Notes: generated from the letters alone by a model not told the origin. A stretch of 64,000 nt of DNA from a virus (IMGVR_UViG_3300021957_003133:51467-115466), one strand, 5' to 3'; positions 8,209 through 62,906 are shown, numbered from the stretch's first letter. Translations and numbers: made by a program.

Positions 8209-9524
8209 GTGACAAAGAAACAGACGACTACTATAAAAATCACGAGTATCACGATCGTAAACCTGTGTACATTGATGAAAAAGATTTAAGGACAGATCAA
8301 TTAGATAGACTTACAAAGAGTGAAACATTCTGTATGATCCCTTGGATACACATGCATGCATTCCCCAATGGGCAAGCATTTCCTTGCTGTCTTGCTGACA
8401 GTGATCATCCTATAGGCGACTTACATAAGAATACTATTCGAGAAGTATGGAATGACACAGCATACAAAACAATGCGTAAGAATATGCTTGAAGAAAAGAG
8501 CTGTAAAGAATGTACTAAATGTTATGAACAAGAAGATATGGGTTTTGTTAGTATGCGTAATTCATCAAACAAATCTTTTGGACATAATATTGGAATAGTG
8601 GATGACACCAAACCAGATGGTACCTTTGATGATTTCAAACTACGTTACTATGATATTAGATTTAGTAACTTATGCAATATGAGTTGTCGTACCTGTGGTG
8701 GTTGGTTTTCTAGTTCGTGGCATGACGAAGAAACAGCATTATATGGTAAGCGTGAGTATCCTAAATTTATGTTTGCTGGCAAAGACAAAGAAGATATGTG
8801 GAATCAATTACAAGAACACATTCCTTATCTAGAACAAGTATACTTTGCTGGTGGTGAACCTTTGATAATGGAAGAACACTATCGCTTGTTAGATGAACTA
8901 GAAAGACAAGAGTTATTCAATGTTAGACTACAGTATAATACTAACTTTAGTAAGCTAAAACTAAAAACAAAACATGTGTTTGACTATTGGCAGAGATTTA
9001 AAAATGTGTCAGTGGGTGCTAGTTTAGATGCCATGGGAGCTAGAGCAGAATACATGCGTAAAGGCACAGTGTGGGCAGAAACTGTTAGTAATAGAGAACG
9101 GATGTTACAAGAATGTCCTAACACAGACTTTTATGTTAGTAGTACCGTTAGCATTTACAACGCACTACATGTCATGGACTTCCATCGTGACTGGGTTGAA
9201 CGTGGATTAATCAAAGCACAAGACTGGAACATCAATATATTACAGGGTCCTAACAGAGACAGGATTGATGTGCTACCAAAGATTTATAAAGAACAAGTAA
9301 AAGAAAAGATACTAGAACATATTGAATGGTTACGCCCACAGGATCATTTAAATCGTGCTGTTGTTGGTTATGAAAGCATATTGACATTTATGGAAAATCA
9401 AGACCAACAAAACTTGTTACAAGAGTTCTTAGAAGTAAATGATAGACACGACGACTATAGAAAAGAACAGTTTGAAACGGTGTTTCCTGAATACAAGGAG
9501 TTAAGAACATATGTCTCTACCTAA
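8205..9524 (+). CDS. Radical SAM protein with N-terminal twitch domain (paralog 3)
   Basis: CNMSCRTC; AGGEP; N-terminal CMIPW..PCC..CTKCY. Confidence 0.9.
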   Translation: MSDKETDDYYKNHEYHDRKPVYIDEKDLRTDQLDRLTKSETFCMIPWIHMHAFPNGQAFPCCLADSDHPIGDLHKNTIREVWNDTAYKTMRKNMLEEKSCKECTKCYEQEDMGFVSMRNSSNKSFGHNIGIVDDTKPDGTFDDFKLRYYDIRFSNLCNMSCRTCGGWFSSSWHDEETALYGKREYPKFMFAGKDKEDMWNQLQEHIPYLEQVYFAGGEPLIMEEHYRLLDELERQELFNVRLQYNTNFSKLKLKTKHVFDYWQRFKNVSVGASLDAMGARAEYMRKGTVWAETVSNRERMLQECPNTDFYVSSTVSIYNALHVMDFHRDWVERGLIKAQDWNINILQGPNRDRIDVLPKIYKEQVKEKILEHIEWLRPQDHLNRAVVGYESILTFMENQDQQNLLQEFLEVNDRHDDYRKEQFETVFPEYKELRTYVST

Positions 9525-50896: not shown

Positions 50897-51322
50897 TTAC
50901 CACTTACGACATGACCAATATCTTGCTTTAGTTTTTGGCCCAGGACTATCGCAATTATGTCTAGCACGGAAACTTTTACGTGCCGCAGGGTTATTTTTTC
51001 TAATACGCATTGTTTTGCCTTTTACACTTGACCCACCGTGTCCAAAATTTACTTTTTTAATGTTACCTGTTTTAGGATCCTTAACATAAACTTTAAACTT
51101 CTTAACATCACCTTGCATAGGTTTGTTTAGTTGGACTTTACGTCCTTGATATTCTGCTTCTTCAAGAGTTTCTTCTACGTCTCCGTAAGCTTCAAAGAAT
51201 TTGTCATCATCTTCGTAAGTTTCTTCTGATTCAGCATGCATTGCCGCCATATGTTTTTTGTACTTTTCGGTACCTTTCTTATGTGGGCTCTTGCCTTCGT
51301 TTAAGATTTCATTAATTTTCAT
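50897..51322 (-). CDS. Tagged putative internal head protein (basic module + DUF6321-like domain)
   Basis: N-terminus MKINEILNE; KKFKVYV..VNFG..RKSFRARHNC..ARYWSC. Confidence 0.6.
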   Translation of the reverse strand: MKINEILNEGKSPHKKGTEKYKKHMAAMHAESEETYEDDDKFFEAYGDVEETLEEAEYQGRKVQLNKPMQGDVKKFKVYVKDPKTGNIKKVNFGHGGSSVKGKTMRIRKNNPAARKSFRARHNCDSPGPKTKARYWSCRKW

Positions 51323-51326
51323 GATA

Positions 51327-51569
51327 TTAGCCTTCTATTGTTTCTAATGTTATTGTTTCTGATATCGGTTCTTTTTCAGGAACTGCATGTGGTGTAGCTT
51401 TGTTTTTTGCTCCGCAATCAAGTTTTAAAAGTAGTATAGCACATAGTAAAGGATTTGGTTTCTTTTTATCTTGTGTTTGCACTTGTTCAGTGTCAACAGT
51501 GTCTTGTACAGTTGTACACCCAGATTGAAGCATTAATATTACTACTAATACAAAAAATAATATTTTCAT
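51327..51569 (-). CDS. Putative lipoprotein
   Basis: Hydrophobic signal peptide with LQSGC lipobox. Confidence 0.6.
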   Translation of the reverse strand: MKILFFVLVVILMLQSGCTTVQDTVDTEQVQTQDKKKPNPLLCAILLLKLDCGAKNKATPHAVPEKEPISETITLETIEG

Positions 51570-51712
51570 CTATTTGGCTCCACATGTAAGGTGCATATAG
51601 TACCTGGCTCTGTACATTTTAGTATTGTGTCATAGTCTATTAGATAACCATTAGCTATATGACTAAGTCCTAGTATTACAGACGCAATAATAATTGCCTT
51701 ACTTGTTGTCAT
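51566..51712 (-). CDS. Small hypothetical protein, 48 aa (not in ORF track)
   Basis: MTTSKAIIIASVILGLSHIANGYLIDYDTILKCTEPGTICTLHVEPNR; ATGA overlaps on both sides. Confidence 0.5.
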   Translation of the reverse strand: MTTSKAIIIASVILGLSHIANGYLIDYDTILKCTEPGTICTLHVEPNR

Positions 51713-52284
51713 TTCTTCTTACCACTTTTCATATTAGCACACCAGTGATACATTTTTGCTTTTTCACCAGATGCTTTTTTTGCCTTTGCTCTTAAGTCTG
51801 TTACTGAACCTTTACAACTAGCACCAGCCTTTTTTACTCTACCTGGACGACTTTTACCTTTTTTTTTACCGTCGGCGAAGTTTTCGTTCATACTAGCACG
51901 TTTGCCCCAATCTAAACTTATTTTGTCATCTGTGATTGGACCACCTGCGGCCCATGTTTCACATGTACGTGCTGAATGACATTTAAAATGATGCATCCAA
52001 CAGTACCCAAGTTTACCGTAGTCATCGGATGTTTTACCAGGCATACATTTTTCCATCCTTGGTGATACATCAAACGCTACACAGTTACCACATAGGCTTT
52101 CTTTAGCTGATTCTTCTGTAGTGTCCCAAAGTTTAGCGGCCTTCTTCCAATAGTCAGCTGGGTTTTTAAAGTTCAATGGTCCATACATATAATTCTTGAT
52201 TGTTGAATTTCTATTGTCTGTATTAATAGCTATGTCCTGTGTAGCTGGCGGACATTTTGCTTCAAGTATTTCCTGGACTTTCAC
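51709..52284 (-). CDS. Tagged Cys-rich protein with basic C-terminal module
   Basis: GTG start (MKVQEILE) with GGAG RBS; CGNC..GYC..FKCHSARTC; C-terminal ENFADGKK...HWCANMKSG. Confidence 0.6.
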   Translation of the reverse strand: MKVQEILEAKCPPATQDIAINTDNRNSTIKNYMYGPLNFKNPADYWKKAAKLWDTTEESAKESLCGNCVAFDVSPRMEKCMPGKTSDDYGKLGYCWMHHFKCHSARTCETWAAGGPITDDKISLDWGKRASMNENFADGKKKGKSRPGRVKKAGASCKGSVTDLRAKAKKASGEKAKMYHWCANMKSGKKK

Positions 52285-52793
52285 TGATTTTCTCCAATTA
52301 TTGGTTTTACTTCCATAAACTCTGGACACTGTTTGTTGAACAATCGCATAATAATACCAGCTTCACTGTTAGCTTCGTTTTCAGCATCGCTACCAGTCAT
52401 CCAACTATCGTCGACAAGTTTGCTATCACAGTCTTGTTTATAGTGTACCATTTCGTGTGCGAGTGTTCTAAGAATATCAACAGGATGTCTGTCAGAAATA
52501 CTTAGATGTATATTCTTGTTGTTTGGATCATAGCCGCCAAAGCTGGCTTGATGTGTACCTGTTTGTTTTTTGCAAAGATGTATTTTAGGAAGTTTTGTTA
52601 TATTTAGATGCTTACAAGCGATAGGCAGTAGTTGTCGAAATCCTTCCATGAGATCTAGATCGTGTTTTTGTTCTTCGTTTGTTTTTTTCTTACCGTCGCA
52701 ATGAGCTTGCTGACTAAACCCTTTTGGGTTTGAACAGTCGATTGAACGCTTATATTTCTCCGTCCATTTTTCAAATAAGTCTAAAGCTAGCAT
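52281..52793 (-). CDS. Tagged protein: small Cys module + zincin-like metallopeptidase domain
   Basis: MLALDLFE; IDCSNPKGFSQQAHC; TLAHEMVH..ENEAN; ATAAATA at 52801-52807. Confidence 0.7.
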   Translation of the reverse strand: MLALDLFEKWTEKYKRSIDCSNPKGFSQQAHCDGKKKTNEEQKHDLDLMEGFRQLLPIACKHLNITKLPKIHLCKKQTGTHQASFGGYDPNNKNIHLSISDRHPVDILRTLAHEMVHYKQDCDSKLVDDSWMTGSDAENEANSEAGIIMRLFNKQCPEFMEVKPIIGENQ

Positions 52794-52803
52794 GATATAG
52801 TAT

Positions 52804-53370
52804 TTATTTCAGACCAATCTTCATAAAACGATTGTATTGGGTACCTTCCACACATTCTAAAGGCATTTGTTTAAGGCAGTAAGTTTCAACTAACGGATAA
52901 GCTTCATCAAATACTGTCAGTGTTTGATATAAATTTTCTTTGTTCCCCCGTTGTTGGTCTCTACCTTGTAATGCTACTATGGTTCCATTAGGGATATTGT
53001 CAAACCATTCTTGACCTTCGATATCATTGGTGCTGGTATTAATTACTAACGAATCGTTGTCTTTGAATTTGGTATTATTGCAGTCCTGCGTAACTGGCAC
53101 GACTTTTTCGCAACAAGCGTTTTGTTTGGCATATTCGGTATTTTTAGGGTCAATATCTATCAAAAATAGCTTATTACATACAATATTTCGGTCTAATATG
53201 TACTGTGCTATACTTCCGTACCAACTACCTAAAGCATATACATTGTCAAATTTATCATGCCCTAATCGTTTAAGAGTCCGACATAACCATAGCTTACCTA
53301 GATTGAGATCTTGACTCATGCTACCGGCTGGGGTGTTCGGAGAACTTTCAAAGAGTTCAATAGCTATCAT
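52804..53370 (-). CDS. Tagged SAM-dependent methyltransferase-like protein
   Basis: MIAIELFE; GKLWL, ALGSWYG, IDID, VINTS, RFMKIG. Confidence 0.6.
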   Translation of the reverse strand: MIAIELFESSPNTPAGSMSQDLNLGKLWLCRTLKRLGHDKFDNVYALGSWYGSIAQYILDRNIVCNKLFLIDIDPKNTEYAKQNACCEKVVPVTQDCNNTKFKDNDSLVINTSTNDIEGQEWFDNIPNGTIVALQGRDQQRGNKENLYQTLTVFDEAYPLVETYCLKQMPLECVEGTQYNRFMKIGLK

Positions 53371-53744
53371 TTGGTTCCCTTTGTTTTTATCTGTCGTATC
53401 CTTCCTGGAGTACGTACTCTTACTGGTTTAGTTACTTTCCTTTTAAATCTTTTAGGAGTTTCGCCTCTCCATTTATTTAATTTTTTAACTGTTCTACTAG
53501 CACGTGATCTTGTTTTAGTACGATTACTTTTAAAAGCCTGCATTTTGTGTGTTCTAGCTCTAACTTTCTTAAATCTATTTGACTTTGCTACATCTAATGC
53601 TTGGTTACAGTTACTGACATCCGGTACCGTTCTTCCTTTACGTTGCCCAGTTTCACATCTCCAAAAGAGGTTGATATGCCCTGTGTTAGGATTACGCCTA
53701 AACACAGCTCTATGCTCTTTAACTATAAACTCTTTTGCTCTCAT
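53367..53744 (-). CDS. Tagged, highly basic protein
   Basis: MRAKEFIVKE; Arg/Lys-rich; RCETGQRKGR..C. Confidence 0.6.
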   Translation of the reverse strand: MRAKEFIVKEHRAVFRRNPNTGHINLFWRCETGQRKGRTVPDVSNCNQALDVAKSNRFKKVRARTHKMQAFKSNRTKTRSRASRTVKKLNKWRGETPKRFKRKVTKPVRVRTPGRIRQIKTKGTK

Positions 53745-54415
53745 AATTTAAAGTAATCAATGAATAACCTAGCTATTCTTTTATGTCCTAGTTCATTTGG
53801 ATGTGTTCTGCATCCTTCAAAATACTGTCCTTGGAAGTCTTCCTCGGCTGGTCCGTCCCACAGATCAGCATTGTATGTTTGGAACAACCTTAAAAACTTA
53901 TTTCTTTCGGTTAGTATTTCTGTTAAGCTTTTACTATCTAAAAACTTTTTTCTATCAATGGCTAATCCGAATTCATGTATTTTATCAATCTGACCGTAGT
54001 TATGTATCATACTATACCGACACCCTTGATCATTTAATATCTTTTGTATGGTATAAACAAACACAGCGTGGTGATATTCAAACCACCTCAAACTTTTATT
54101 ACCTAAGAACTCTTTATACCGTTTAGTTAAGTTGCCGGTCCCTTCCATACTATACATATTATGGAATCCGTCTTCTTCACTTTCATCATACCATCTTACA
54201 TCTGGCGGAATAATTACAGTAACTATGTCATCGTTTTCTATTTGCTTAACATTTGCTACAATAGTTTGTAACACATTGCCAAGACTAAATCCTTCTACTC
54301 CATAATTACTATATTCTACACCTAACTGCTGAGCCATCCAGTGCGGATACGGTTTTTCACCTTCATTTAATTCAGCTCCGTATGCCCAACTATCTCCAAA
54401 TGCTATTATTTTCAT
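53741..54415 (-). CDS. SGNH/GDSL-like hydrolase
   Basis: FGDSWAYG, NYGVEGFS, THPNELGH. Confidence 0.7.
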   Translation of the reverse strand: MKIIAFGDSWAYGAELNEGEKPYPHWMAQQLGVEYSNYGVEGFSLGNVLQTIVANVKQIENDDIVTVIIPPDVRWYDESEEDGFHNMYSMEGTGNLTKRYKEFLGNKSLRWFEYHHAVFVYTIQKILNDQGCRYSMIHNYGQIDKIHEFGLAIDRKKFLDSKSLTEILTERNKFLRLFQTYNADLWDGPAEEDFQGQYFEGCRTHPNELGHKRIARLFIDYFKL

Positions 54416-54421
54416 ATTATT

Positions 54422-54490
54422 GTATGCCCACTTCGGTGTTTTAATCCTAGGCAGGAGCCTCCTAACATAACGGTCCTATGGCTATGTTCT
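54422..54490 (-). ncRNA. Candidate structured RNA downstream of a late-promoter motif
   Basis: AACAUAGC-CAUAGGACC-GUUAUGUU hairpin, GGC-UCCU-GCC, CAC-CGAA-GUG; ATAAATA at 54497-54503. Confidence 0.35.
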
Positions 54491-54499
54491 TTTATATAT

Positions 54500-55717
54500 T
54501 TATTGCTCTTTAGGTGGCGGAACGTACTCTACAGTTATTTTACCGTCTTTGAGTGTTACCTGTATCTGTCTGTATATTGTAGTTGGTAATCCATCTTGTC
54601 TATCTATTGCGTTTTCTACACTAATACTAAACACATTTTCTAAATCGCCTATGTATTGATTACGTCCGTCATCTTCCTCAATTTGTCTAGCTAGTTCACG
54701 CACTTCATCTACAGTTATATCAAGGGCACCGTAAACATTACCATAATATGCACTAGCAGAATCATTGTATTCTGTGTATGAAGGATAATCATCTTTGTAT
54801 TCACCTTCTTCATCAACGTAACCCTCGTCTCGAAGATACTCATAATACCCGTCATCGCTCATTTCCCAATCCATCATAACTTCATTTAAGAATTCTAAAC
54901 TCATCTGTTTAATTTCTTCACAGGCTTTCCTAAGTTCATCTTCATTAGGGAAAAATATTATACGTCCACCCAAGTCTGGGTCAACAGTTAGCCACCACTC
55001 TCTAAAGTCTTCACCGAAGCGTTCTATTAAATCTCCTGCGTCTACGTCACGATCCTGTTCGTCCATGTACTGTCCAGACTCTGGATGTACCTGATACTTT
55101 TCACCTTCGTATTGGGCTTTGGTAGGAAGTAAGATGTACATTGGGCCATCTCGATTGTATCTATCAAACATATTGTTACTGTCTGCGGCTGTACACCAGC
55201 GTGTGCCTTGTCCATAGTAGCAAGCGGCACTGGTATCTTCAGGCTGTATGACACGCACACCTGCGTCTTTATAAATTTCTTTTGCTTGACCTTTATCTCG
55301 CTGTTCCTTGCCTTCAGGTTCTTCATATTGATCAACTGCATCATAGAATGATTTTAAATCTTTAAATCTATTAAAGTCTGAGTGTTCAGGTTTAAGTAAT
55401 TTTTTAACTGCTAGAGTAGCAAACTTGGTTAGATAGTCACGCATTGTACTACCTATGTCTTCCCATTTGAGTAAACCGTTGGCATACATACGAGCAAGTG
55501 CCTGTGTATACTTTTTCTGTTTAGTAGGATCGCCCACTTCAATTTGATTTTTAAGTATCATCTCAGCGGCTTCTACAGGAGTTAAGTTGTCCTGTATATT
55601 TTTTCTAACAGCACCCGGAACAGTGTTATCAGCCATAGCAGTATTAACTAGCTTGGCGGCAAATGCCTGTGCTGTTTTTGATCTATCGTATTCTATTATA
55701 AAGTGTCTTGCTCTCAT
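54500..55717 (-). CDS. Tagged protein with PcfJ-like core and acidic C-terminus (paralog A)
   Basis: MRARHFIIE; GDPTK, AACYYGQGTRWCTAA, EKYQ.H..SGQYMDEQD. Confidence 0.6.
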   Translation of the reverse strand: MRARHFIIEYDRSKTAQAFAAKLVNTAMADNTVPGAVRKNIQDNLTPVEAAEMILKNQIEVGDPTKQKKYTQALARMYANGLLKWEDIGSTMRDYLTKFATLAVKKLLKPEHSDFNRFKDLKSFYDAVDQYEEPEGKEQRDKGQAKEIYKDAGVRVIQPEDTSAACYYGQGTRWCTAADSNNMFDRYNRDGPMYILLPTKAQYEGEKYQVHPESGQYMDEQDRDVDAGDLIERFGEDFREWWLTVDPDLGGRIIFFPNEDELRKACEEIKQMSLEFLNEVMMDWEMSDDGYYEYLRDEGYVDEEGEYKDDYPSYTEYNDSASAYYGNVYGALDITVDEVRELARQIEEDDGRNQYIGDLENVFSISVENAIDRQDGLPTTIYRQIQVTLKDGKITVEYVPPPKEQ

Positions 55718-55718
55718 T

Positions 55719-56573
55719 TTACTTCCTAAATATTGATACTACGATTGGGTATTCACCGTCACCCGCTATTAATTGTTCGTATGCTTTCTTACCTTGACGT
55801 TGTTCGTGATCACGCCATACTTCATCAATCACTGCATCTGGATCCTCACAGTAATCTTCGTCTGATTGACAATCATCAGTAAAGCCTTCAACGTGTACTA
55901 CCCAAGTGTTGCCTTTACTATCTTTAATCTCATCAACTGAAACGTCTTCTGGTGATCTTCCTTCAATCCACCTTTCTACTTCAGGTGGCAACGGCTTTTC
56001 TTCATCTTCATTTACTTGTTCATCCCAAGGTGTAACTAGTCCCCAACTGTCTGGATTTCTTTGTAGCGTATCTATGTTAATAAGACCATAGGGCTTAAAA
56101 TCTAAATCTATTAGATGACGTTCAAACCATAGTACTTCATCACCATAGCCTTCTGCGTTTTGTTCATCATTAGTAACATTAATAACTGCTGTTCCTTCGA
56201 CTTCTTTCTGTAGTTCCCATGCTTCTTCATCATCAATACCTAAGTAATCCATTACTTCATTGTCCATTGGTATTGGAACAGCACTAGGCTTAGGTAATCC
56301 ACCTCGTCTAATGTTATCAGCTTCTTGTTTACTAATGCCACGATACCAGCCAGCATCGTCCTCACCTTCTGCAACTACTTTTTTTAAATCGTGTTCAACA
56401 CCCTTAGATAAATCTTTTGTGTGATGCTTGTGTGGCAACGCAAATGTTTCACCGGTATCATCATTCTTATATACTTCGTGACTACCGTGTGCTCTTTCTT
56501 TATGAAAGTTATTCTTTTTTAATATCTTTTCTGCCTCACGATGTGACATTTCTTTAAATTCTTGATATCTCAT
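55719..56573 (-). CDS. Tagged multi-domain protein: HicA-like + ART-like (WYRG) + acidic domain
   Basis: MRYQEFKE; AEKILKKNNF..RAHGSHEVY..ALPH..KDLSKG (HicA pattern); WYRGIS. Confidence 0.6.
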   Translation of the reverse strand: MRYQEFKEMSHREAEKILKKNNFHKERAHGSHEVYKNDDTGETFALPHKHHTKDLSKGVEHDLKKVVAEGEDDAGWYRGISKQEADNIRRGGLPKPSAVPIPMDNEVMDYLGIDDEEAWELQKEVEGTAVINVTNDEQNAEGYGDEVLWFERHLIDLDFKPYGLINIDTLQRNPDSWGLVTPWDEQVNEDEEKPLPPEVERWIEGRSPEDVSVDEIKDSKGNTWVVHVEGFTDDCQSDEDYCEDPDAVIDEVWRDHEQRQGKKAYEQLIAGDGEYPIVVSIFRK

Positions 56574-57895
56574 TATGCTCTCTCCGGCTCCCCACCTACG
56601 TATCCTGTTACTGACATTGGATAACCATAACTATCTAACAGTTGGTTAATCGCTTTCTCATACTGTTCTTCAGCTAAACTACTCGTTTGAGCTTCATCTT
56701 CTATTCGTACCATACCTTTTAAGAATTTTTCTAATTTCTCAACTTCAGGCTCATTACTTAATTCCTCAGCCTTTTCAAAATCAACACTACTAACTGTAAG
56801 AACTGCTGATTCTGGTTCTTCGCCTAGTTCAGCATATGTTAAACCTAAACAATCATCACTTGTTGCGTCAAACCAACCGTAGGCTATGTATTCTGTACCT
56901 GCTAGATTTGCCCAACTGTTGCCTTTCATCATGTTCTTTTCAACTAACATGTCAATGGTACTACGACTAATCTCCCAGGTGTCTAATGAAGTTCCAGGTT
57001 GATTTAGACTTAGAGTATACATATCACCGTGCATTACACGATTATTAATTATCTTTGCATCAGTCTCTTTTTTCCACTCAGCATAATCTTCATCAGTCAT
57101 TAGTGCTGGTATAGTTTTACGTTTAGCCCAATCAGTTATTGTTTTAATATTACGTATTGAAGGATACTGTTCTAGTACCTTGTACATATCTACTTCACGA
57201 TCTTGCTCGTCCATAAACTGTCCACTTTGGAAATGGAACTGATACTTTTCACCCTCATACTTGGGTTTAGTAGGCATTATGATATACATGTCGCCCATCT
57301 TGTGATACTGATCAAACATATTGTTACTACGTGCCGCAGTACACCATTTAGTACCTTGCCCATAATAACAAGCCGCCGCTTTGTCTTTAGGCACTATAAC
57401 TCTAATCTCACTGTCACGATATATTTCACGACTGCTACCTCTGTCTGTAACAGGTGCTTCTAAGTCTTCTTCACTGTAATCTGCCATTGCTGTTAATAGA
57501 TTAACAGGCTGTTTCATTTGATTAATGTCTTTGTGTTCAGGCTTTAGTTTCTTTCTTAACTTGAGAGTCACATACTTTTCTAGTGCATCTCTCATTTTAC
57601 TCTTAATGTCTTCTAATGGAATAATTTCTTTTGAATACATACGGGCCAACCATTGACTGTATTCTTTATTTTTTGTAGGATCTCCCATTTCAATCTGAGT
57701 AAACACTTTGTTTAATAAATCTTGTTTGTCGTTAGGATGTAGTTCTTTCCAACTACCGCTACGTGAGTGTAAGTTCCATATATCTAAATCGGCACGAGGT
57801 TGCTTATCTCTCTGTAGTGCTTGTATGATTTTTTCACCATGCACCTGCTGAGTTTTTTCTCTGGAGTACTCTAAGATAAATTGTTTTGCTCTCAT
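56573..57895 (-). CDS. Tagged protein with PcfJ-like core (paralog B)
   Basis: MRAKQFILE; GDPTK, AACYYGQGTKWCTAA, EKYQFHFQSGQFMDEQD. Confidence 0.6.
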   Translation of the reverse strand: MRAKQFILEYSREKTQQVHGEKIIQALQRDKQPRADLDIWNLHSRSGSWKELHPNDKQDLLNKVFTQIEMGDPTKNKEYSQWLARMYSKEIIPLEDIKSKMRDALEKYVTLKLRKKLKPEHKDINQMKQPVNLLTAMADYSEEDLEAPVTDRGSSREIYRDSEIRVIVPKDKAAACYYGQGTKWCTAARSNNMFDQYHKMGDMYIIMPTKPKYEGEKYQFHFQSGQFMDEQDREVDMYKVLEQYPSIRNIKTITDWAKRKTIPALMTDEDYAEWKKETDAKIINNRVMHGDMYTLSLNQPGTSLDTWEISRSTIDMLVEKNMMKGNSWANLAGTEYIAYGWFDATSDDCLGLTYAELGEEPESAVLTVSSVDFEKAEELSNEPEVEKLEKFLKGMVRIEDEAQTSSLAEEQYEKAINQLLDSYGYPMSVTGYVGGEPERA

Positions 57896-58626
57896 TTTTT
57901 AAATATATTTCCTTTTGTATCTTCGGCTATAACATGTACTTTGCCGTCGTATTTAAATTTTATATATGGATCCTGTGATATAGATATCTTAGTATCTGCT
58001 TGCATAATAATATATTCTTCTTCGTCAACCCAAGTAATAGTTTTAATAATCCATTCTGGTATATAACCGCCTGACTCTAAATCTTTCTGTAGTCCACTAA
58101 ACATTGGATGTTTAATTCTAGTTGTTTTATAACCTTCTTTATCTTTAAACAATATCTTACCTAGGTCTTTTGTCAATGCCGGATCATGTACATCCATGTA
58201 ACCTGAACAACCACCACTAGCTCTAATACCAGTTTTGTGTGTAAACAAGTCACCCATAGCTGTTTCTCCAACTATACGAACATAACTATCTGTTTCCATT
58301 CTAACACGTGTTGATATTTCAGTGTTTTGTGTTCTGTCTGTTAATTTAAATGTTGCTACATGTTGTACTGGATTAGCATCAATGACCAAGTAAAGTTTAA
58401 CAAAACGATCAGTATTAACAGTAATAGTTACAGGTACCTGAGCACCACTGGCCGCTCTTTTAGGACCCGATATTGTTAACTCATCATTTTTATCTAGTTC
58501 AACTGCTGTTCTAACACCAAACATTCTTTCTTGTATGTAAGGCCATAGATCAGGATTAAAATGTTTGTCGTCATACGCAAACACCTGACTTGTAAACAAC
58601 ATTAACGCTATTAGTAATAGTTTCAT
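57892..58626 (-). CDS. SoxY-SoxZ-like fusion (quinoprotein dehydrogenase-associated SoxYZ-like carrier)
   Basis: Signal peptide; GAQVPV, IDANP, TRVRM, ASGGCS, then SoxZ-like IKHPMFSGLQ, SISQDP. Confidence 0.8.
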   Translation of the reverse strand: MKLLLIALMLFTSQVFAYDDKHFNPDLWPYIQERMFGVRTAVELDKNDELTISGPKRAASGAQVPVTITVNTDRFVKLYLVIDANPVQHVATFKLTDRTQNTEISTRVRMETDSYVRIVGETAMGDLFTHKTGIRASGGCSGYMDVHDPALTKDLGKILFKDKEGYKTTRIKHPMFSGLQKDLESGGYIPEWIIKTITWVDEEEYIIMQADTKISISQDPYIKFKYDGKVHVIAEDTKGNIFKK

Positions 58627-58627
58627 A

Positions 58628-58963
58628 TTATGACTTTGCCTTATCAAATAGCATGGCTAATATCATAGCACCAATACCTGTGACTAATGCTTCTGTCCAC
58701 CACGCACCAAAGTGACTAGATACAAAGATTAAATCAGCGCCTGCTGTTGCAACTCCTGTAAGCCAAACTATAGTCCATTTGTTATCCAATTTTGGTATAA
58801 AACTTGCTAATAGGACAACTAGTCCTGCTATTGCTCCTGTCTTAGAAGCAACTCCAGCATGATATAAACTTAGTACACTCAAGTCACCTTGAACCATACA
58901 AACCATACAAGCTGTCCAAGCTTCACTAAACTTTTGAAACCATAGCTTAAATTTAATTTTCAT
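58628..58963 (-). CDS. Hypothetical membrane protein
   Basis: Hydrophobic; AWTACMVCMVQGD. Confidence 0.6.
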   Translation of the reverse strand: MKIKFKLWFQKFSEAWTACMVCMVQGDLSVLSLYHAGVASKTGAIAGLVVLLASFIPKLDNKWTIVWLTGVATAGADLIFVSSHFGAWWTEALVTGIGAMILAMLFDKAKS

Positions 58964-58966
58964 ATG

Positions 58967-59338
58967 TTACTCCTTAACAGGATAGTATGCTGGTATTTGT
59001 TGCATACCTAACTGTTTTGCTTTAAAAGCACGGTGGTTCCCATCTATTATAACACCATTATGGTCAATTACAATAGGTCTTGCTAGTATTTCTTCTTTAC
59101 TGATTCTATCAATTGTGTCATCATCAAAGTCTTGTATACGATTATATGGATCCGATGTTTCATCATCATCATAGTCTTTTACTTTGACCATTGACATAGG
59201 TACTCGATCCATGTCCCAATCTGGATGATCAGTTACTGCGTGATCTAAATGATCTGACCAATCGTGATGTTGTTGCTTAACGTATTTTAAAACATCAGTA
59301 TTCAGATAACTTTCAATTATGAACTCAGTTGCTCGCAT
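58967..59338 (-). CDS. Tagged ParB/sulfiredoxin-like domain protein
   Basis: MRATEFIIE; PIVID..IIDGNHR..A..LG...IPA. Confidence 0.75.
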   Translation of the reverse strand: MRATEFIIESYLNTDVLKYVKQQHHDWSDHLDHAVTDHPDWDMDRVPMSMVKVKDYDDDETSDPYNRIQDFDDDTIDRISKEEILARPIVIDHNGVIIDGNHRAFKAKQLGMQQIPAYYPVKE

Positions 59339-59676
59339 TATATCGTTTTATCCTTGAGCATATCTTTTACTATTGGGTACGTCTTACTCTGATTTGGCAT
59401 ACCTTGTAAAAATCTTAATATATTATTAAACTCCACTCTTGCTTCTTCTTTCATTCCTGCACTGCTTAATTCTTTGATATTTTTTATTGCTCGAAATATG
59501 CTTAAAGCTATACCACCAGCTTTTTTAGCTTGCTCTTGAGATTGTGGTTCAGATTTTTGCATTGGATTATCTGTCATCGATGCCATAGCTGGATCGTACG
59601 TCAATGCGGCTAACAAAGCGGCTATTGCCGCATTAGTTCTTATACCTTCGTTTACTATGATTTCTTCAGCTTTCAT
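59338..59676 (-). CDS. Tagged hypothetical protein
   Basis: Start re-assigned to MKAEEIIVNE; hydrophobic AAIAALLAAL segment follows. Confidence 0.55.
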   Translation of the reverse strand: MKAEEIIVNEGIRTNAAIAALLAALTYDPAMASMTDNPMQKSEPQSQEQAKKAGGIALSIFRAIKNIKELSSAGMKEEARVEFNNILRFLQGMPNQSKTYPIVKDMLKDKTI

Positions 59677-59683
59677 AACTTTA

Positions 59684-60418
59684 TTATACACTCTTTGTTA
59701 ATATTTGTCTAAACCATTCACCAGTACCAGGCAAACATGCTCGATCCTCTGGAAGTACCAGTTGTGCTTTTTCAAATGATTCTTTAGCATCCTTAACTAA
59801 TTGTTCATAGTTAGGATCGTTTTTAATTTTCCTAATAATACTTTCAACTGATTGCATATCTTTCACAGTACCACCTAAAAGTTTATCTGCTATTTCTTGA
59901 GGGTCTTTAGTAATTACCTCATTACTGGCACGGCTTATTAAGCCATACTTTTGACTCCATTTTAATCCGTAGAACTTAGCAATACTTGATAATAAAATAT
60001 GTCTATGCAATCCCTTATAAGGCGACCCTTCCGGAGAACCTGTTAGACTAAATTTCTGCCATTCTGGATCACCAAACATAAAGTCTACTTGTACGTAACC
60101 ATTAGCTTCATCGCCTAAGATAGGTGCTTTATAATGTACTGAGTCTCCACTCTTACGTAGGTCTTCTGCTTTAACTTTCTTACCTAGCAATTGATTAATT
60201 AGTGTTTGCTTATCTATTTTGGTTTCATCAACACCTAGATCCAAATCACCTGATGTTTCCTTGCGTCCAGTTGATCCTAACATGTTGTCTACAAGATTGA
60301 GTCCTGTTAATCGTTCTAACCACTGTACTGTAGGAACAACATTATCACGTGTAATACGTTGTGTTAAAGGTTCACCCTTTTCATTTTTAAAAACATTACC
60401 GCCTTCTAGTAATATCAT
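59684..60418 (-). CDS. Tagged Pol-beta-superfamily nucleotidyltransferase
   Basis: MILLEGGNVF; LGSTG..SGDLDL (GS..DxD); VQVDFM. Confidence 0.7.
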   Translation of the reverse strand: MILLEGGNVFKNEKGEPLTQRITRDNVVPTVQWLERLTGLNLVDNMLGSTGRKETSGDLDLGVDETKIDKQTLINQLLGKKVKAEDLRKSGDSVHYKAPILGDEANGYVQVDFMFGDPEWQKFSLTGSPEGSPYKGLHRHILLSSIAKFYGLKWSQKYGLISRASNEVITKDPQEIADKLLGGTVKDMQSVESIIRKIKNDPNYEQLVKDAKESFEKAQLVLPEDRACLPGTGEWFRQILTKSV

Positions 60419-61386
60419 TTTTTCGTCCTTTTACTAACGTATTTTGCATGCGGAACTTTAAGATTCTTTTTACCGTACACTTTACCAATTTTATGTCTAT
60501 AACTTAGATTGTTTGGATCTAATCCATAAAAATGATCCATTGATTCATCCATTTCTTTAATCACATACTGCTCGTCCCACATTTTGTTCAATGTTCTTTC
60601 AGGATACTTAGTTTCCGCATTAGGATCGAATTGACTAGCACTTGGATCCAGCACAGTTGTTCCCATCTTAACTACATAGTGTTTCCAATATTTTTTAGGT
60701 ATTTCTTTCCATCGCTCATCTGCTTTACTGTCATCACCTTGATAACCTGCTACCTGTATCAGTTTAGCATCTAGTCCTTTTTGTTTAGCACGAGTGTATA
60801 ATTGTTCAGCATAGTCGTAGCACTTGTTGAACTCATCTTCTTTTAATGCAACTGTGCTATATGCTTGATCTAACTGATCTTTAACTATTTGTAGACTGTC
60901 CTCATCAGCTTGATATTTAATTCCAATACCACCAGCTTTCCTCCAGGCATCTATGTTTGTTCCTTTGTCATCTATTAGTATGTTAGGTGTCTGCCCATTG
61001 GTTGCAAATTGTGCCTTATTGCTAGTAATCTGTATTGTTTGAGGTTGAGGGTTAAGATGTTCTTTGATCCAAATCTTTTTCCATTTTTCACTGTTAGCAT
61101 AGTCGTTACGCAATGGAGAACTACAAATACTGTAACTGCCGGCATAACTGATTGCAAGATTTACTAATTGGTCTGCTGTAGGGAATTTAGGTAGTCTAGC
61201 AAAGAAGTCCGTTCCTATTAGGCTATCTAATATCGGATCAACTTTGGCCGCTGGTATGTCTCTATATGATTCTACATCTGCTAGTTTAGCGTACTCAGCA
61301 AAAAAGTTCGCAAGAACACCATCCATATCTAGATAGATTATAGTGTCCTTAGTTGCTTTAATTTTTACTAGTTCACTTGCTCTCAT
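60415..61386 (-). CDS. Tagged HAD 5'(3')-deoxyribonucleotidase-like domain + Cys-His-Asp (papain/transglutaminase-like) domain
   Basis: MRASEL; YLDMDGVLA, ICSSP, LIDDK..N...W...GG; then NKCYDY..HYVV..VLDPSASQF; ATAAATA at 61393-61399. Confidence 0.75.
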   Translation of the reverse strand: MRASELVKIKATKDTIIYLDMDGVLANFFAEYAKLADVESYRDIPAAKVDPILDSLIGTDFFARLPKFPTADQLVNLAISYAGSYSICSSPLRNDYANSEKWKKIWIKEHLNPQPQTIQITSNKAQFATNGQTPNILIDDKGTNIDAWRKAGGIGIKYQADEDSLQIVKDQLDQAYSTVALKEDEFNKCYDYAEQLYTRAKQKGLDAKLIQVAGYQGDDSKADERWKEIPKKYWKHYVVKMGTTVLDPSASQFDPNAETKYPERTLNKMWDEQYVIKEMDESMDHFYGLDPNNLSYRHKIGKVYGKKNLKVPHAKYVSKRTKK

Positions 61387-61410
61387 AACTAGTATTTATC
61401 GTGGTTTGAA

Positions 61411-61779
61411 CTATCCGGCTTGTCTAGTGAGATAGTTAATTCTGGTTTTTGTTGGTCTGAAAAACTCATCAACAGTATCATTCACAGTCTCAACATCAAA
61501 CTGTTTACACGAAAATACGTCTAGATATAGGTCACCAGTCGAATCAATAAAGTGAGCTACGATAGTTGATGTAACAATAATCTGTACAGCAGTTAGTCCA
61601 GCTTTATCTGGAAATTCTGCCGCGGTGTATTCTATGTGTGTATCGCCGATAGGTTTCATATCAATACGTACCAATAACGCATCAATAAAGTCTTTAACTA
61701 CTGTAGCATCTTTGATATTATCTCGATTGCAATCGTGGCAATCTAAAGTGAGGTGATACCCCCAATACAATGAACTCAT
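61411..61779 (-). CDS. speD: S-adenosylmethionine decarboxylase proenzyme-like
   Basis: GYHLTLDC, GLTAVQIIVTSTIVAH, YLDVFSCKQFD. Confidence 0.8.
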   Translation of the reverse strand: MSSLYWGYHLTLDCHDCNRDNIKDATVVKDFIDALLVRIDMKPIGDTHIEYTAAEFPDKAGLTAVQIIVTSTIVAHFIDSTGDLYLDVFSCKQFDVETVNDTVDEFFRPTKTRINYLTRQAG

Positions 61780-61805
61780 TGAACTCTCCTAATTGAAATA
61801 TTATA

Positions 61806-62261
61806 TTACTTACCTTCCATTAGTTTAACAGCTTTGTTATACGCTGTCAAGTTAATGGCGCCTTCACGCAAAAGTTTTTCTCTATTAACTAAATGTTTTG
61901 CTTCAACTTCATCTTTTGATCCACCAAAGTATGCTACACAATGTCCTGATTCAATCATTACATCTGTTGCCATTTTGCCGTCATTGGTTATAAAGTCACC
62001 TAATATACGTCCAAACTTACCTTTGGCATCATACTTCTTACATTTTAGAACTGATTTTTTACCTAGCAATGATTTAAGTTTATCCTTTGCGGCTAACCCA
62101 AATACTTTTTCTACTTTGTCTCTTGTGCGACTTTCTGGTGTGTCAATGCCCATTATGCGAACACGTTCTTTAACTAATACTACGCCAAAGCCTAGGTCAA
62201 TGTCTACATCGACAGTGTCGCCATCTACTACTCTTTTAATTGTTACTGCATATTCGTACAT
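61806..62261 (-). CDS. Thermonuclease (SNase-like)
   Basis: RVVDGDTVD, RIMGIDTPESR, KFGRILG. Confidence 0.9.
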   Translation of the reverse strand: MYEYAVTIKRVVDGDTVDVDIDLGFGVVLVKERVRIMGIDTPESRTRDKVEKVFGLAAKDKLKSLLGKKSVLKCKKYDAKGKFGRILGDFITNDGKMATDVMIESGHCVAYFGGSKDEVEAKHLVNREKLLREGAINLTAYNKAVKLMEGK

Positions 62262-62297: not shown

Positions 62298-62906
62298 TTA
62301 TATCACAGGAATCCAAGTATTAAGGAGGTAAGGAGTAGATTGTATGTAGTGCATAGGAACGAAATCCATTGAAACACCTATCCTTGGTTCGTCTTGTTGC
62401 CATTCATTGACCATATGTGTATCACCTTCATCTTCGTATATGCTGAATGTATTATTTTCAGCGTGGTGATCAAATATTTTTCCATCTGCCCACTTGTATC
62501 TGGTAACAGAGGGTTCAGTATTAATGTAGTATGAAGCAACATAAGTTTCGTCTAAGTCACTGAGTGCTTTCCAATGATTATGCCAAGGTATGCTTTCACC
62601 TTTTTGTTGATAGTTTAACCAAGCGTGTACATAATATTTGTTGTCGTAGGTATTAATCTTATTAAATTCACTACAGACTTTTCGATACAGTTCGTTGATA
62701 CTGGTGTAAGGGAACGTAAACACATTATAGAAATCGTGTAGTCGTGAACTGGTAGGTGCCTGTTCTAACTGTTTGCTCAGTGCGTTCTCATACTTTTTAG
62801 CGTGGGGGACTTCTTGTTTGCCGTATGCTTTTGTGACTTTGTTGTTTATTCTACGACAATCTTTTGTTAGTTGTTTGAGGTCTAGATCAAATTCTATGAT
62901 CTTCAT
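62298..62906 (-). CDS. 2OG-Fe(II) oxygenase-like protein
   Basis: AWLNY..PWHNH..YY..THMV..PRIGVSMD. Confidence 0.6.
   Translation of the reverse strand: MKIIEFDLDLKQLTKDCRRINNKVTKAYGKQEVPHAKKYENALSKQLEQAPTSSRLHDFYNVFTFPYTSINELYRKVCSEFNKINTYDNKYYVHAWLNYQQKGESIPWHNHWKALSDLDETYVASYYINTEPSVTRYKWADGKIFDHHAENNTFSIYEDEGDTHMVNEWQQDEPRIGVSMDFVPMHYIQSTPYLLNTWIPVI

Follow-up and report, generated by a model that had tools for sequence, protein, structure and literature searches.

Why should a run of neighbouring phage genes, most of them encoding proteins of unrelated kinds, start with nearly the same 8–10 residues? The question is raised by a block at positions 50897–61386 of a 64,000-nucleotide stretch of viral DNA (the window), which makes up the final 64 kb of an IMG/VR virus record of 115,466 bases (IMGVR_UViG_3300021957_003133, called G000 here). 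The original prediction had listed twelve such N-termini and compared them with the capsid-targeting sequence (CTS) of phage T4. We conclude, with a probability of roughly 0.7, that this N-terminal peptide, called the tag below, acts as a T4-type capsid-targeting and processing signal on an enlarged, modular cargo. The tagged proteins are most likely loaded into the capsid and clipped, because the tag matches the cutting rule of the phage's own T4-type head protease.

The shared N-terminus and its frequency

All twelve N-termini were found where they had been placed, on the minus strand. Ten of them are strong tags of 8–10 residues with the consensus M-R/K-x-x-E/Q-F/I-I/L-x-E. The strong tags all end in [LIVF]-x-E, and this rule holds for 11 of the twelve N-termini, the gene starting at 61386 being the exception. 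The pattern as first proposed matches 7 of the 17 genes in the block, none of the 101 other genes of the record and none of 662 internal Met positions. A wider pattern, M-[RK]-x-x-[EQH]-[FIL]-h-x-E (h, hydrophobic), matches 10/17 block genes compared with 2/101 others (Fisher 1e-8) and 3/662 internal Met. The tag is thus real and is enriched far above chance relative to other N-termini and internal Met, one of the comparisons by which the original prediction could have been refuted.

When the first 12 residues were removed, the sole homologous pair among the bodies was 54500–55717 and 56573–57895 (E 6e-67). The claim of twelve unrelated tagged proteins holds as to the unrelated bodies and the portable tag; the number becomes about 10 proteins, with 9 independent strong families and one paralogue pair. 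The SGNH hydrolase, the SoxYZ fusion and the small membrane proteins of the block are untagged, as had been said of its metabolic genes. At 8–10 residues with 2–3 acidic residues, the tags do not have the layout of a Sec/Tat signal peptide, in which an unbroken hydrophobic h-region comes after a positively charged n-region. In AlphaFold2 (AF2) models of 54500–55717 and 59684–60418, residues 1–7 are disordered ahead of the fold in both cases. The tag strings were not found in any paper of the searchable literature. Beyond the block, a 2OG-Fe(II)-oxygenase-like protein (62298–62906, minus strand; phrog_81, 2e-7) starts MKIIEFDLD, which is tag-like with Asp at the Glu position.

A shared start may also arise without any function of the peptide, from a constraint on nucleotides or translation initiation, or from common descent of gene starts. 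ATG-[AC]GA-GCA-A is common to five of the genes, and A-rich second codons are frequent in AT-rich phages. However, the codons behind the shared starts differ synonymously, and the motif is missing from 99 other genes of the record and rare at internal Met. Its distribution in other phages also speaks against such an origin. In a scan of IMG/VR with a back-translated MRAxEFIhE pattern, the peptide heads open reading frames (ORFs) on at least 119 contigs, compared with 4 for a control with the same residues in permuted order, so that the control of equal composition is at least 30-fold rarer. The motif is also held in homologues down to 36% identity. We therefore find this explanation scarcely credible. 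Of 86 matches in the first 80 loci analysed, 79 stand at the start of an ORF with at least 60 residues, and the complete tagged ORFs (n=110) fall in 29 clusters. Their cargo includes GH19 together with GNAT, amidoligase, SLT (a weak match) and NT5C domains.

The head protease and its cutting rule

CheckV rates the 115,466-base record as 33% complete. It encodes a T4-type major capsid protein of 391 residues (phrog_138, 9e-100), a T4-type portal (phrog_213, 3.5e-105) and, at positions 8358–8999 of the record, a gp21-family head maturation protease (phrog_207, 1.7e-57). By capsid protein, the nearest cultured relatives are jumbo myoviruses of 287–358 kb, namely Vibrio phage 2.275.O (68% identity), Pseudomonas phage PA5oct (67%), and Serratia BF, Yersinia fHe-Yen9-04 and Erwinia Eneladusvirus phages (65%). 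These genes place the source phage among the PA5oct-like jumbo myoviruses, as an uncultured member whose prohead protease is of the gp21 type. A Megablast search with the block as query gave no match in phage records. As a separate observation, the capsid-protein ORF of a 99%-complete relative, G001 (G001:C1:193560–194465, minus strand), is called at 301 residues compared with 391 here, and may be split or interrupted.

The two wider-pattern matches outside the block are the capsid protein (MTTQLLE/G; the slash marks the candidate cut) and a 74-residue head protein beside the portal (MNILEFFE/T), which are the kinds of protein that T4 gp21 processes (capsid protein and head or core protein). 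The putative scaffold protein starts MNKYEQLIE. The capsid protein and the 74-residue core protein carry the identical type of site, so the proposed comparison of the tag with the phage's own head proteins bears the idea out. The protease of the source phage is also encoded by 5 of 5 large tag-bearing contigs (259–519 kb), with 54–78% identity.

In T4, the CTS of the internal proteins IPII and IPIII (and IPI) is removed by the prohead protease gp21 (Mullaney and Black 1996; PMC9026906, PMC3012670, PMC8442874). Targeting depends mainly on residues 4 and 7 and processing on residues 8 and 10, and Asp at position 10 blocks processing while still permitting targeting (PMC9026906). T-even internal proteins are diverse, and the CTS is their sole common part (PMC3012670). 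The starts read from NC_000866 are MKTYQEFIAE for ipII and ipIII, MAKINELLRE for gp24, MLKEQLIAE for gp22, MNEPQLLIE for gp21 and MELITE for alt. The likeness to the CTS asserted by the original prediction was upheld, in that the tag ends in a gp21-type hydrophobic-x-Glu and a gp21-family protease is encoded. Both systems place an N-terminal tag of roughly 10 residues on otherwise unrelated proteins, with an acidic-aromatic/hydrophobic core (...YQEFIAE in T4, MRYQEFKE and MRATEFIIE here), and both have head proteins with the same site and genes in a plastic region. They differ in that the tag here is one residue shorter (consensus MRAxEFIxE), and the extra residue of the T4 CTS puts it outside our narrower pattern. 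Furthermore, the lineage here is PA5oct-like and not Straboviridae, and about 10 bearers lie in one 10.5-kb island, compared with two T4 genes that have the exact CTS. The predicted cargo here includes folded enzymes and multi-module proteins with candidate internal sites, in a system known from sequence alone. T4 gene 61.1 (NC_000866 18966–19130, minus strand), a 54-residue hypothetical protein, starts MKTFKEFIKE, very near the CTS of ipII and ipIII.

The same N-terminus could be a recognition leader for another partner, such as a radical-SAM or other modifying enzyme, a chaperone or a degradation system, and not a capsid address. The source record and its aquatic relatives do carry many radical-SAM genes; G001, G002 and G004 (344–519 kb) have 11–22 matches to PF04055 each. 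However, PA5oct and Vibrio phage 2.275.O have tag-like proteins and no PF04055 match. The capsid and core proteins start with the same site, which obeys the gp21 rule, and the rule for module junctions given below fits a protease. A leader of this kind is thus very improbable, and we return to a capsid address.

Genes of the block

The features of the block are as follows, where cargo means predicted cargo, aa is amino acids, nt is nucleotides and (−) is the minus strand.

50897–51322 (−): tagged cargo, 141 aa, MKINEILNE/G; net charge +13; C-terminal phrog_7595 module
51158–51160 (−): codon of Glu55, candidate internal site LEE/A before the phrog_7595 module of 50897–51322
51709–52284 (−): tagged cargo, 191 aa, GTG start, MKVQEILE/A; C-terminal basic module of ~57 aa (NFADGK...)
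51883–51885 (−): codon of Glu134, candidate internal site MNE/N before the basic module of 51709–52284
52281–52793 (−): tagged cargo, 170 aa, MLALDLFE/K; HExxH metallopeptidase-like, weak profile matches
52799–52807 (−): ATAAATACT, late-promoter-like motif, 5 nt upstream of the ATG at 52793
52804–53370 (−): tagged cargo, 188 aa, MIAIELFE/S; family or structure match not found
53367–53744 (−): tagged cargo, 125 aa, MRAKEFIVKE/H; extremely basic (net +32), like T4 internal proteins
53741–54415 (−): untagged SGNH/GDSL-like hydrolase inside the block
54500–55717 (−): tagged cargo, 405 aa, MRARHFIIE/Y
55719–56573 (−): tagged three-module cargo, 284 aa, net charge −34: MRYQEFKE/, HicA (9–69) VAE/, modA (70–189) VNE/, modC (190–284)
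56367–56369 and 56007–56009 (−): codons of the candidate internal sites VAE/G and VNE/D of 55719–56573
56573–57895 (−): tagged cargo, 440 aa, MRAKQFILE/Y; paralogue of 54500–55717 with a different C-terminal part
57892–58626 (−): untagged SoxY-SoxZ fusion with a classical signal peptide (Pfam 4e-25 and 1.5e-16)
58628–58963 (−): untagged small membrane protein
58967–59338 (−): tagged cargo, 123 aa, MRATEFIIE/S; ParB/Srx-like C-terminal part (PHROG 2.6e-7)
59338–59676 (−): tagged cargo, 112 aa, MKAEEIIVNE/G; a GTG five codons upstream is a possible alternative start, with a propeptide of 15 aa
59684–60418 (−): Pol-beta/Pol X-type nucleotidyltransferase fold, 244 aa, start MILLE/GG
60415–61386 (−): 5'-deoxyribonucleotidase (residues 12–167) plus modB, 323 aa; degenerate tag MRASELVK without Glu
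60838–60840 (−): codon of Glu183, candidate internal site LKE/D of 60415–61386
61391–61399 (−): ATAAATACT, late-promoter-like motif, 4 nt upstream of the ATG at 61386

The N-termini at 60418 and 61386, which had been offered as looser matches, are both in place and are weak tags. At 60418, the start LLE/G is identical to that of the capsid protein. The h-h-E-GGNV motif is conserved as a feature of the whole family, across the 120 homologues listed of 1980 found, and the status of MILLE/GG as a tag is therefore ambiguous. MRASELVK at 61386 looks like a decayed tag, because a homologue of this nucleotidase in IMG/VR starts MRAREFIIE. In the 54500–55717 family, the tag is kept in nearly all of the 120 homologues listed (of 450 found).

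The SoxY-SoxZ fusion is a sulfur-oxidation auxiliary gene within a phage cargo island. Just upstream of the block (61411–62261, minus strand) are an AdoMet decarboxylase (Pfam 1.6e-17) and a staphylococcal-nuclease homologue (1.8e-12), and the nuclease gene sits behind a full TATAAATA motif.

Functions of the tagged proteins

The functional labels first given to these proteins fared unequally. HicA in 55719–56573 was borne out by PF07927 at residues 12–59 (34.9 bits, gathering cut-off 27). No HicB antitoxin family was found among the neighbouring proteins. The HicA domain is joined to two very acidic modules; these might keep it neutralised until cleavage, or they might mimic nucleic acid. The nucleotidase of 60415–61386 is a deoxyribonucleotidase (PHROG 1.9e-22), and the nucleotidyltransferase of 59684–60418 has a Pol X/Pol-beta fold (Foldseek 1.3e-4, probability 1.0), so both labels stand. 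The ParB-like and HExxH metallopeptidase labels are weakly supported, by weak profile matches.

Two labels found no support. The proteins called ADP-ribosyltransferase (ART)-like (54500–55717 and 56573–57895) have no ART match in Pfam, PHROG or NCBIfam; in these libraries they match two PHROGs of unknown function, without a named function. A confident AF2 model of the 54500 family (predicted local distance difference test, pLDDT, 86) has no PDB match by Foldseek (best E 0.2) or VIA-align (best Z 5.5, GNAT-like and weak), which leaves the ART-like label unsupported. Atlas gives a PcfJ-like lead at 0.89, to be taken as a lead only. The supposed methyltransferase (52804–53370) has no profile match in any library and no PDB sequence match. 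Pfam, PHROG and NCBIfam searches returned nothing for the proteins of 51709–52284, 52804–53370, 53367–53744 and 59338–59676.

Modules are shuffled between Glu-ending junctions

Homologues of the HicA protein in related phages revealed that the modules of the block recombine inside single polypeptides. The architectures found are the tag directly on modA without HicA; the tag followed by modB (the C-terminal half of the nucleotidase protein) and then HicA; nucleotidase followed by HicA; the tag followed by HicA and then the basic module that ends 51709–52284; and metallopeptidase followed by HicA and then this basic module, the last being a fusion seen in homologues of 52281–52793. These proteins have 2–4 modules, combining peptidase, HicA, nucleotidase and basic module, and the tag stays N-terminal.

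We tabulated the residues before six recurrent modules (HicA, modA, modB, modC, basic NFADGK and phrog_7595). Glu is at P1 in all 59 distinct junctions, and in 52 a V, I, L, M or F occupies P3, compared with a background of 1.5% per position. In 14 of the 59 cases the junction is the N-terminal tag itself. Since all junctions follow Glu and 14 of them are the tag, the last Glu of the tag is a module boundary. This suggests a cleavable, multi-modular cargo in the related phages, with modules shuffled between h-x-Glu joints.

How might such a system work? Late in infection, the tagged proteins would bind the prohead scaffolding core via the tag, and the gp21-family prohead protease would cut after the Glu of hydrophobic-x-Glu. 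The cut would remove the tag and, in multi-module cargo, would also split the modules at internal hydrophobic-x-Glu linkers. The freed proteins would remain in the head and exit with the DNA at the next infection. They would comprise very basic proteins resembling internal proteins, together with the HicA RNase domain, the deoxyribonucleotidase, the Pol-beta-type nucleotidyltransferase, the HExxH peptidase and the ParB-like protein. For this phage, we infer each of these events, from core binding and cleavage to retention in the head and ejection, and likewise what the cargo does.

Late-promoter motifs

The ATAAATA motifs at 52801 and 61393, cited in the original prediction as a sign of late expression, were confirmed. 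The record has 24 copies of ATAAATA, 14 of which lie within 40 nt upstream of a gene start on the same strand (p 5e-18). The genes behind it are those of the portal, baseplate wedge and hub and virion proteins, in addition to the genes starting at 61386 and 52793. By this linkage to structural-gene starts the motif behaves like a late promoter. ATAAATA is also under-represented in G000, with 24 copies compared with 28–70 for seven listed letter permutations; the low count and the placement at gene starts are as expected of a promoter that is avoided elsewhere. The late-promoter role is thus supported, and late expression of the whole block is not proven by the motif.

Virion evidence and the weight of the alternatives

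In the RefSeq entry of PA5oct, notes mark those proteins that electrospray ionization tandem mass spectrometry (ESI-MS/MS) detected in virions. Among strict tag-like proteins of PA5oct, 4 of 6 are marked (gp333, which starts MKINDIITE, gp246, gp105 and gp104), compared with 93 of 461 proteins overall (p 0.017), in small numbers that leave 2 of the 6 undetected. Two block proteins have PA5oct homologues, and each homologue is a virion protein: gp279 for the 54500 family and gp253 for 59684–60418. N-terminal processing is not discussed in the PA5oct paper. The capsid protein of phage RaK2 migrates at a little less than the predicted mass (PMC3622015), consistent with a short propeptide.

Several points weigh against a capsid-targeting signal. 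PA5oct is a relative with 67% identity, and its marks show presence in the virion, not cleavage. The support for removal of the tag is comparative. The 54500 and 59684 families conserve the N-terminal motif together with the residues that follow, and in these families it could be part of the domain; likewise, the conserved Glu of the junctions could belong to the modules themselves. On T4 (269 genes), the loose pattern finds ipII, ipIII, gp21, gp22, gp24 and alt, and also about 10 false positives, among them vs.6, 61.1 and alc. The neighbours of the block are DNA polymerase and auxiliary genes and not head genes, the head module being about 90 kb away, and with only two late-promoter-like motifs inside the block the timing is uncertain. 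No terminators were found in the block, and a scan for sigma-70 promoters and terminators was no better than with shuffled sequence. Finally, the complete relatives G001 and G002 have 6–7 tags each. PA5oct and Vibrio phage 2.275.O have about 5–6 tag-like proteins each, fewer than the source phage.

Tagged genes, fewer and different in content, also occur upstream of DNA polymerase in the corresponding island of G001 and G002. Because island content and tag number differ in these relatives, the tagged block appears to be a plastic cargo island. This turnover bears on whether the tagged proteins leave the head at all. They might be prohead-protease substrates that act only inside it, as scaffold-like core or DNA-condensing internal proteins, and not as effectors in the next host. 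Several are extremely basic (+32, +17 and +13) like T4 internal proteins, or very acidic like scaffold proteins. In the Pol-beta-fold family of 59684–60418, identity is 66–98% among the 120 homologues listed of 1980 found. Such conservation is unusual for a phage accessory gene and is easier to square with a structural or core role than with an arms race. However, it is hard to see what HicA RNase, deoxyribonucleotidase, peptidase and ParB-like domains would do in a capsid, other bearers of the tag carry GH19, GNAT, SLT and amidoligase domains, and content turns over rapidly between relatives. We consider it unlikely that the set as a whole acts only in the head; a purely internal, structural role is possible for the very basic and very acidic members. 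Packaging with delivery to the next host is the reading that we prefer.

Relation to other packaged proteins

T4 Alt, an ADP-ribosyltransferase that is packaged, processed by gp21 and injected, is likewise an enzyme among the cargo and has a short N-terminal propeptide of the h-x-E type (MELITE/). It is processed at both termini (PMC9026906), and its ADP-ribosyltransferase fold was not found in the block 50897–61386. The polyvalent proteins (Iyer et al. 2017, PMC5512222) have in common with the tagged set a zincin-like peptidase, Pol-beta nucleotidyltransferase, ParB-like, GNAT and peptidoglycan hydrolase domains, combinatorial shuffling of modules with two or more effector domains per polypeptide, and predicted delivery with the DNA. 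In contrast, a module here is frequently a small gene in its own right, with a tag to itself; the junctions have a site of the prohead-protease type and do not rely on an embedded peptidase; the block is not among virion structural or packaging genes; and HicA, found here, is not mentioned in the text of PMC5512222. In the phiKZ-like giant phage SPN3US, the prohead protease gp245 also cuts after x-x-Glu in many head and ejection proteins, whereas its motif is A-x-E, most propeptides have 111–254 residues, and a short common portable tag is not described there (PMC10052503).

Significance for jumbo phages

A broader proposal is more tentative, and we would put it at somewhat below even odds. 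An aquatic clade of jumbo phages may run a combinatorial system of injected effectors, in which modules are shuffled between h-x-Glu joints, addressed by one 9-residue prohead tag, cut apart in the capsid and delivered with the DNA, so that a toxin-type RNase hits host mRNA before phage genes are expressed. The predicted modules are HicA RNase, nucleotidase, zincin-like peptidase, Pol-beta nucleotidyltransferase, a small basic DNA-binding module and acidic modules. If true, phages would have their own analogue of polymorphic-toxin and polyvalent-protein systems, one with a defined address code.

The rule for module junctions links the biology of the T4 CTS to the computationally predicted polyvalent proteins. 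The tag could serve to load foreign proteins into jumbo-phage heads. If it works as in T4, the packaged and injected proteins of a large, mostly uncultured clade of jumbo phages would become readable from sequence, and this would yield a list of candidate effectors of the first minutes of infection, whether in anti-defence, host shut-off or cell-wall breaching.

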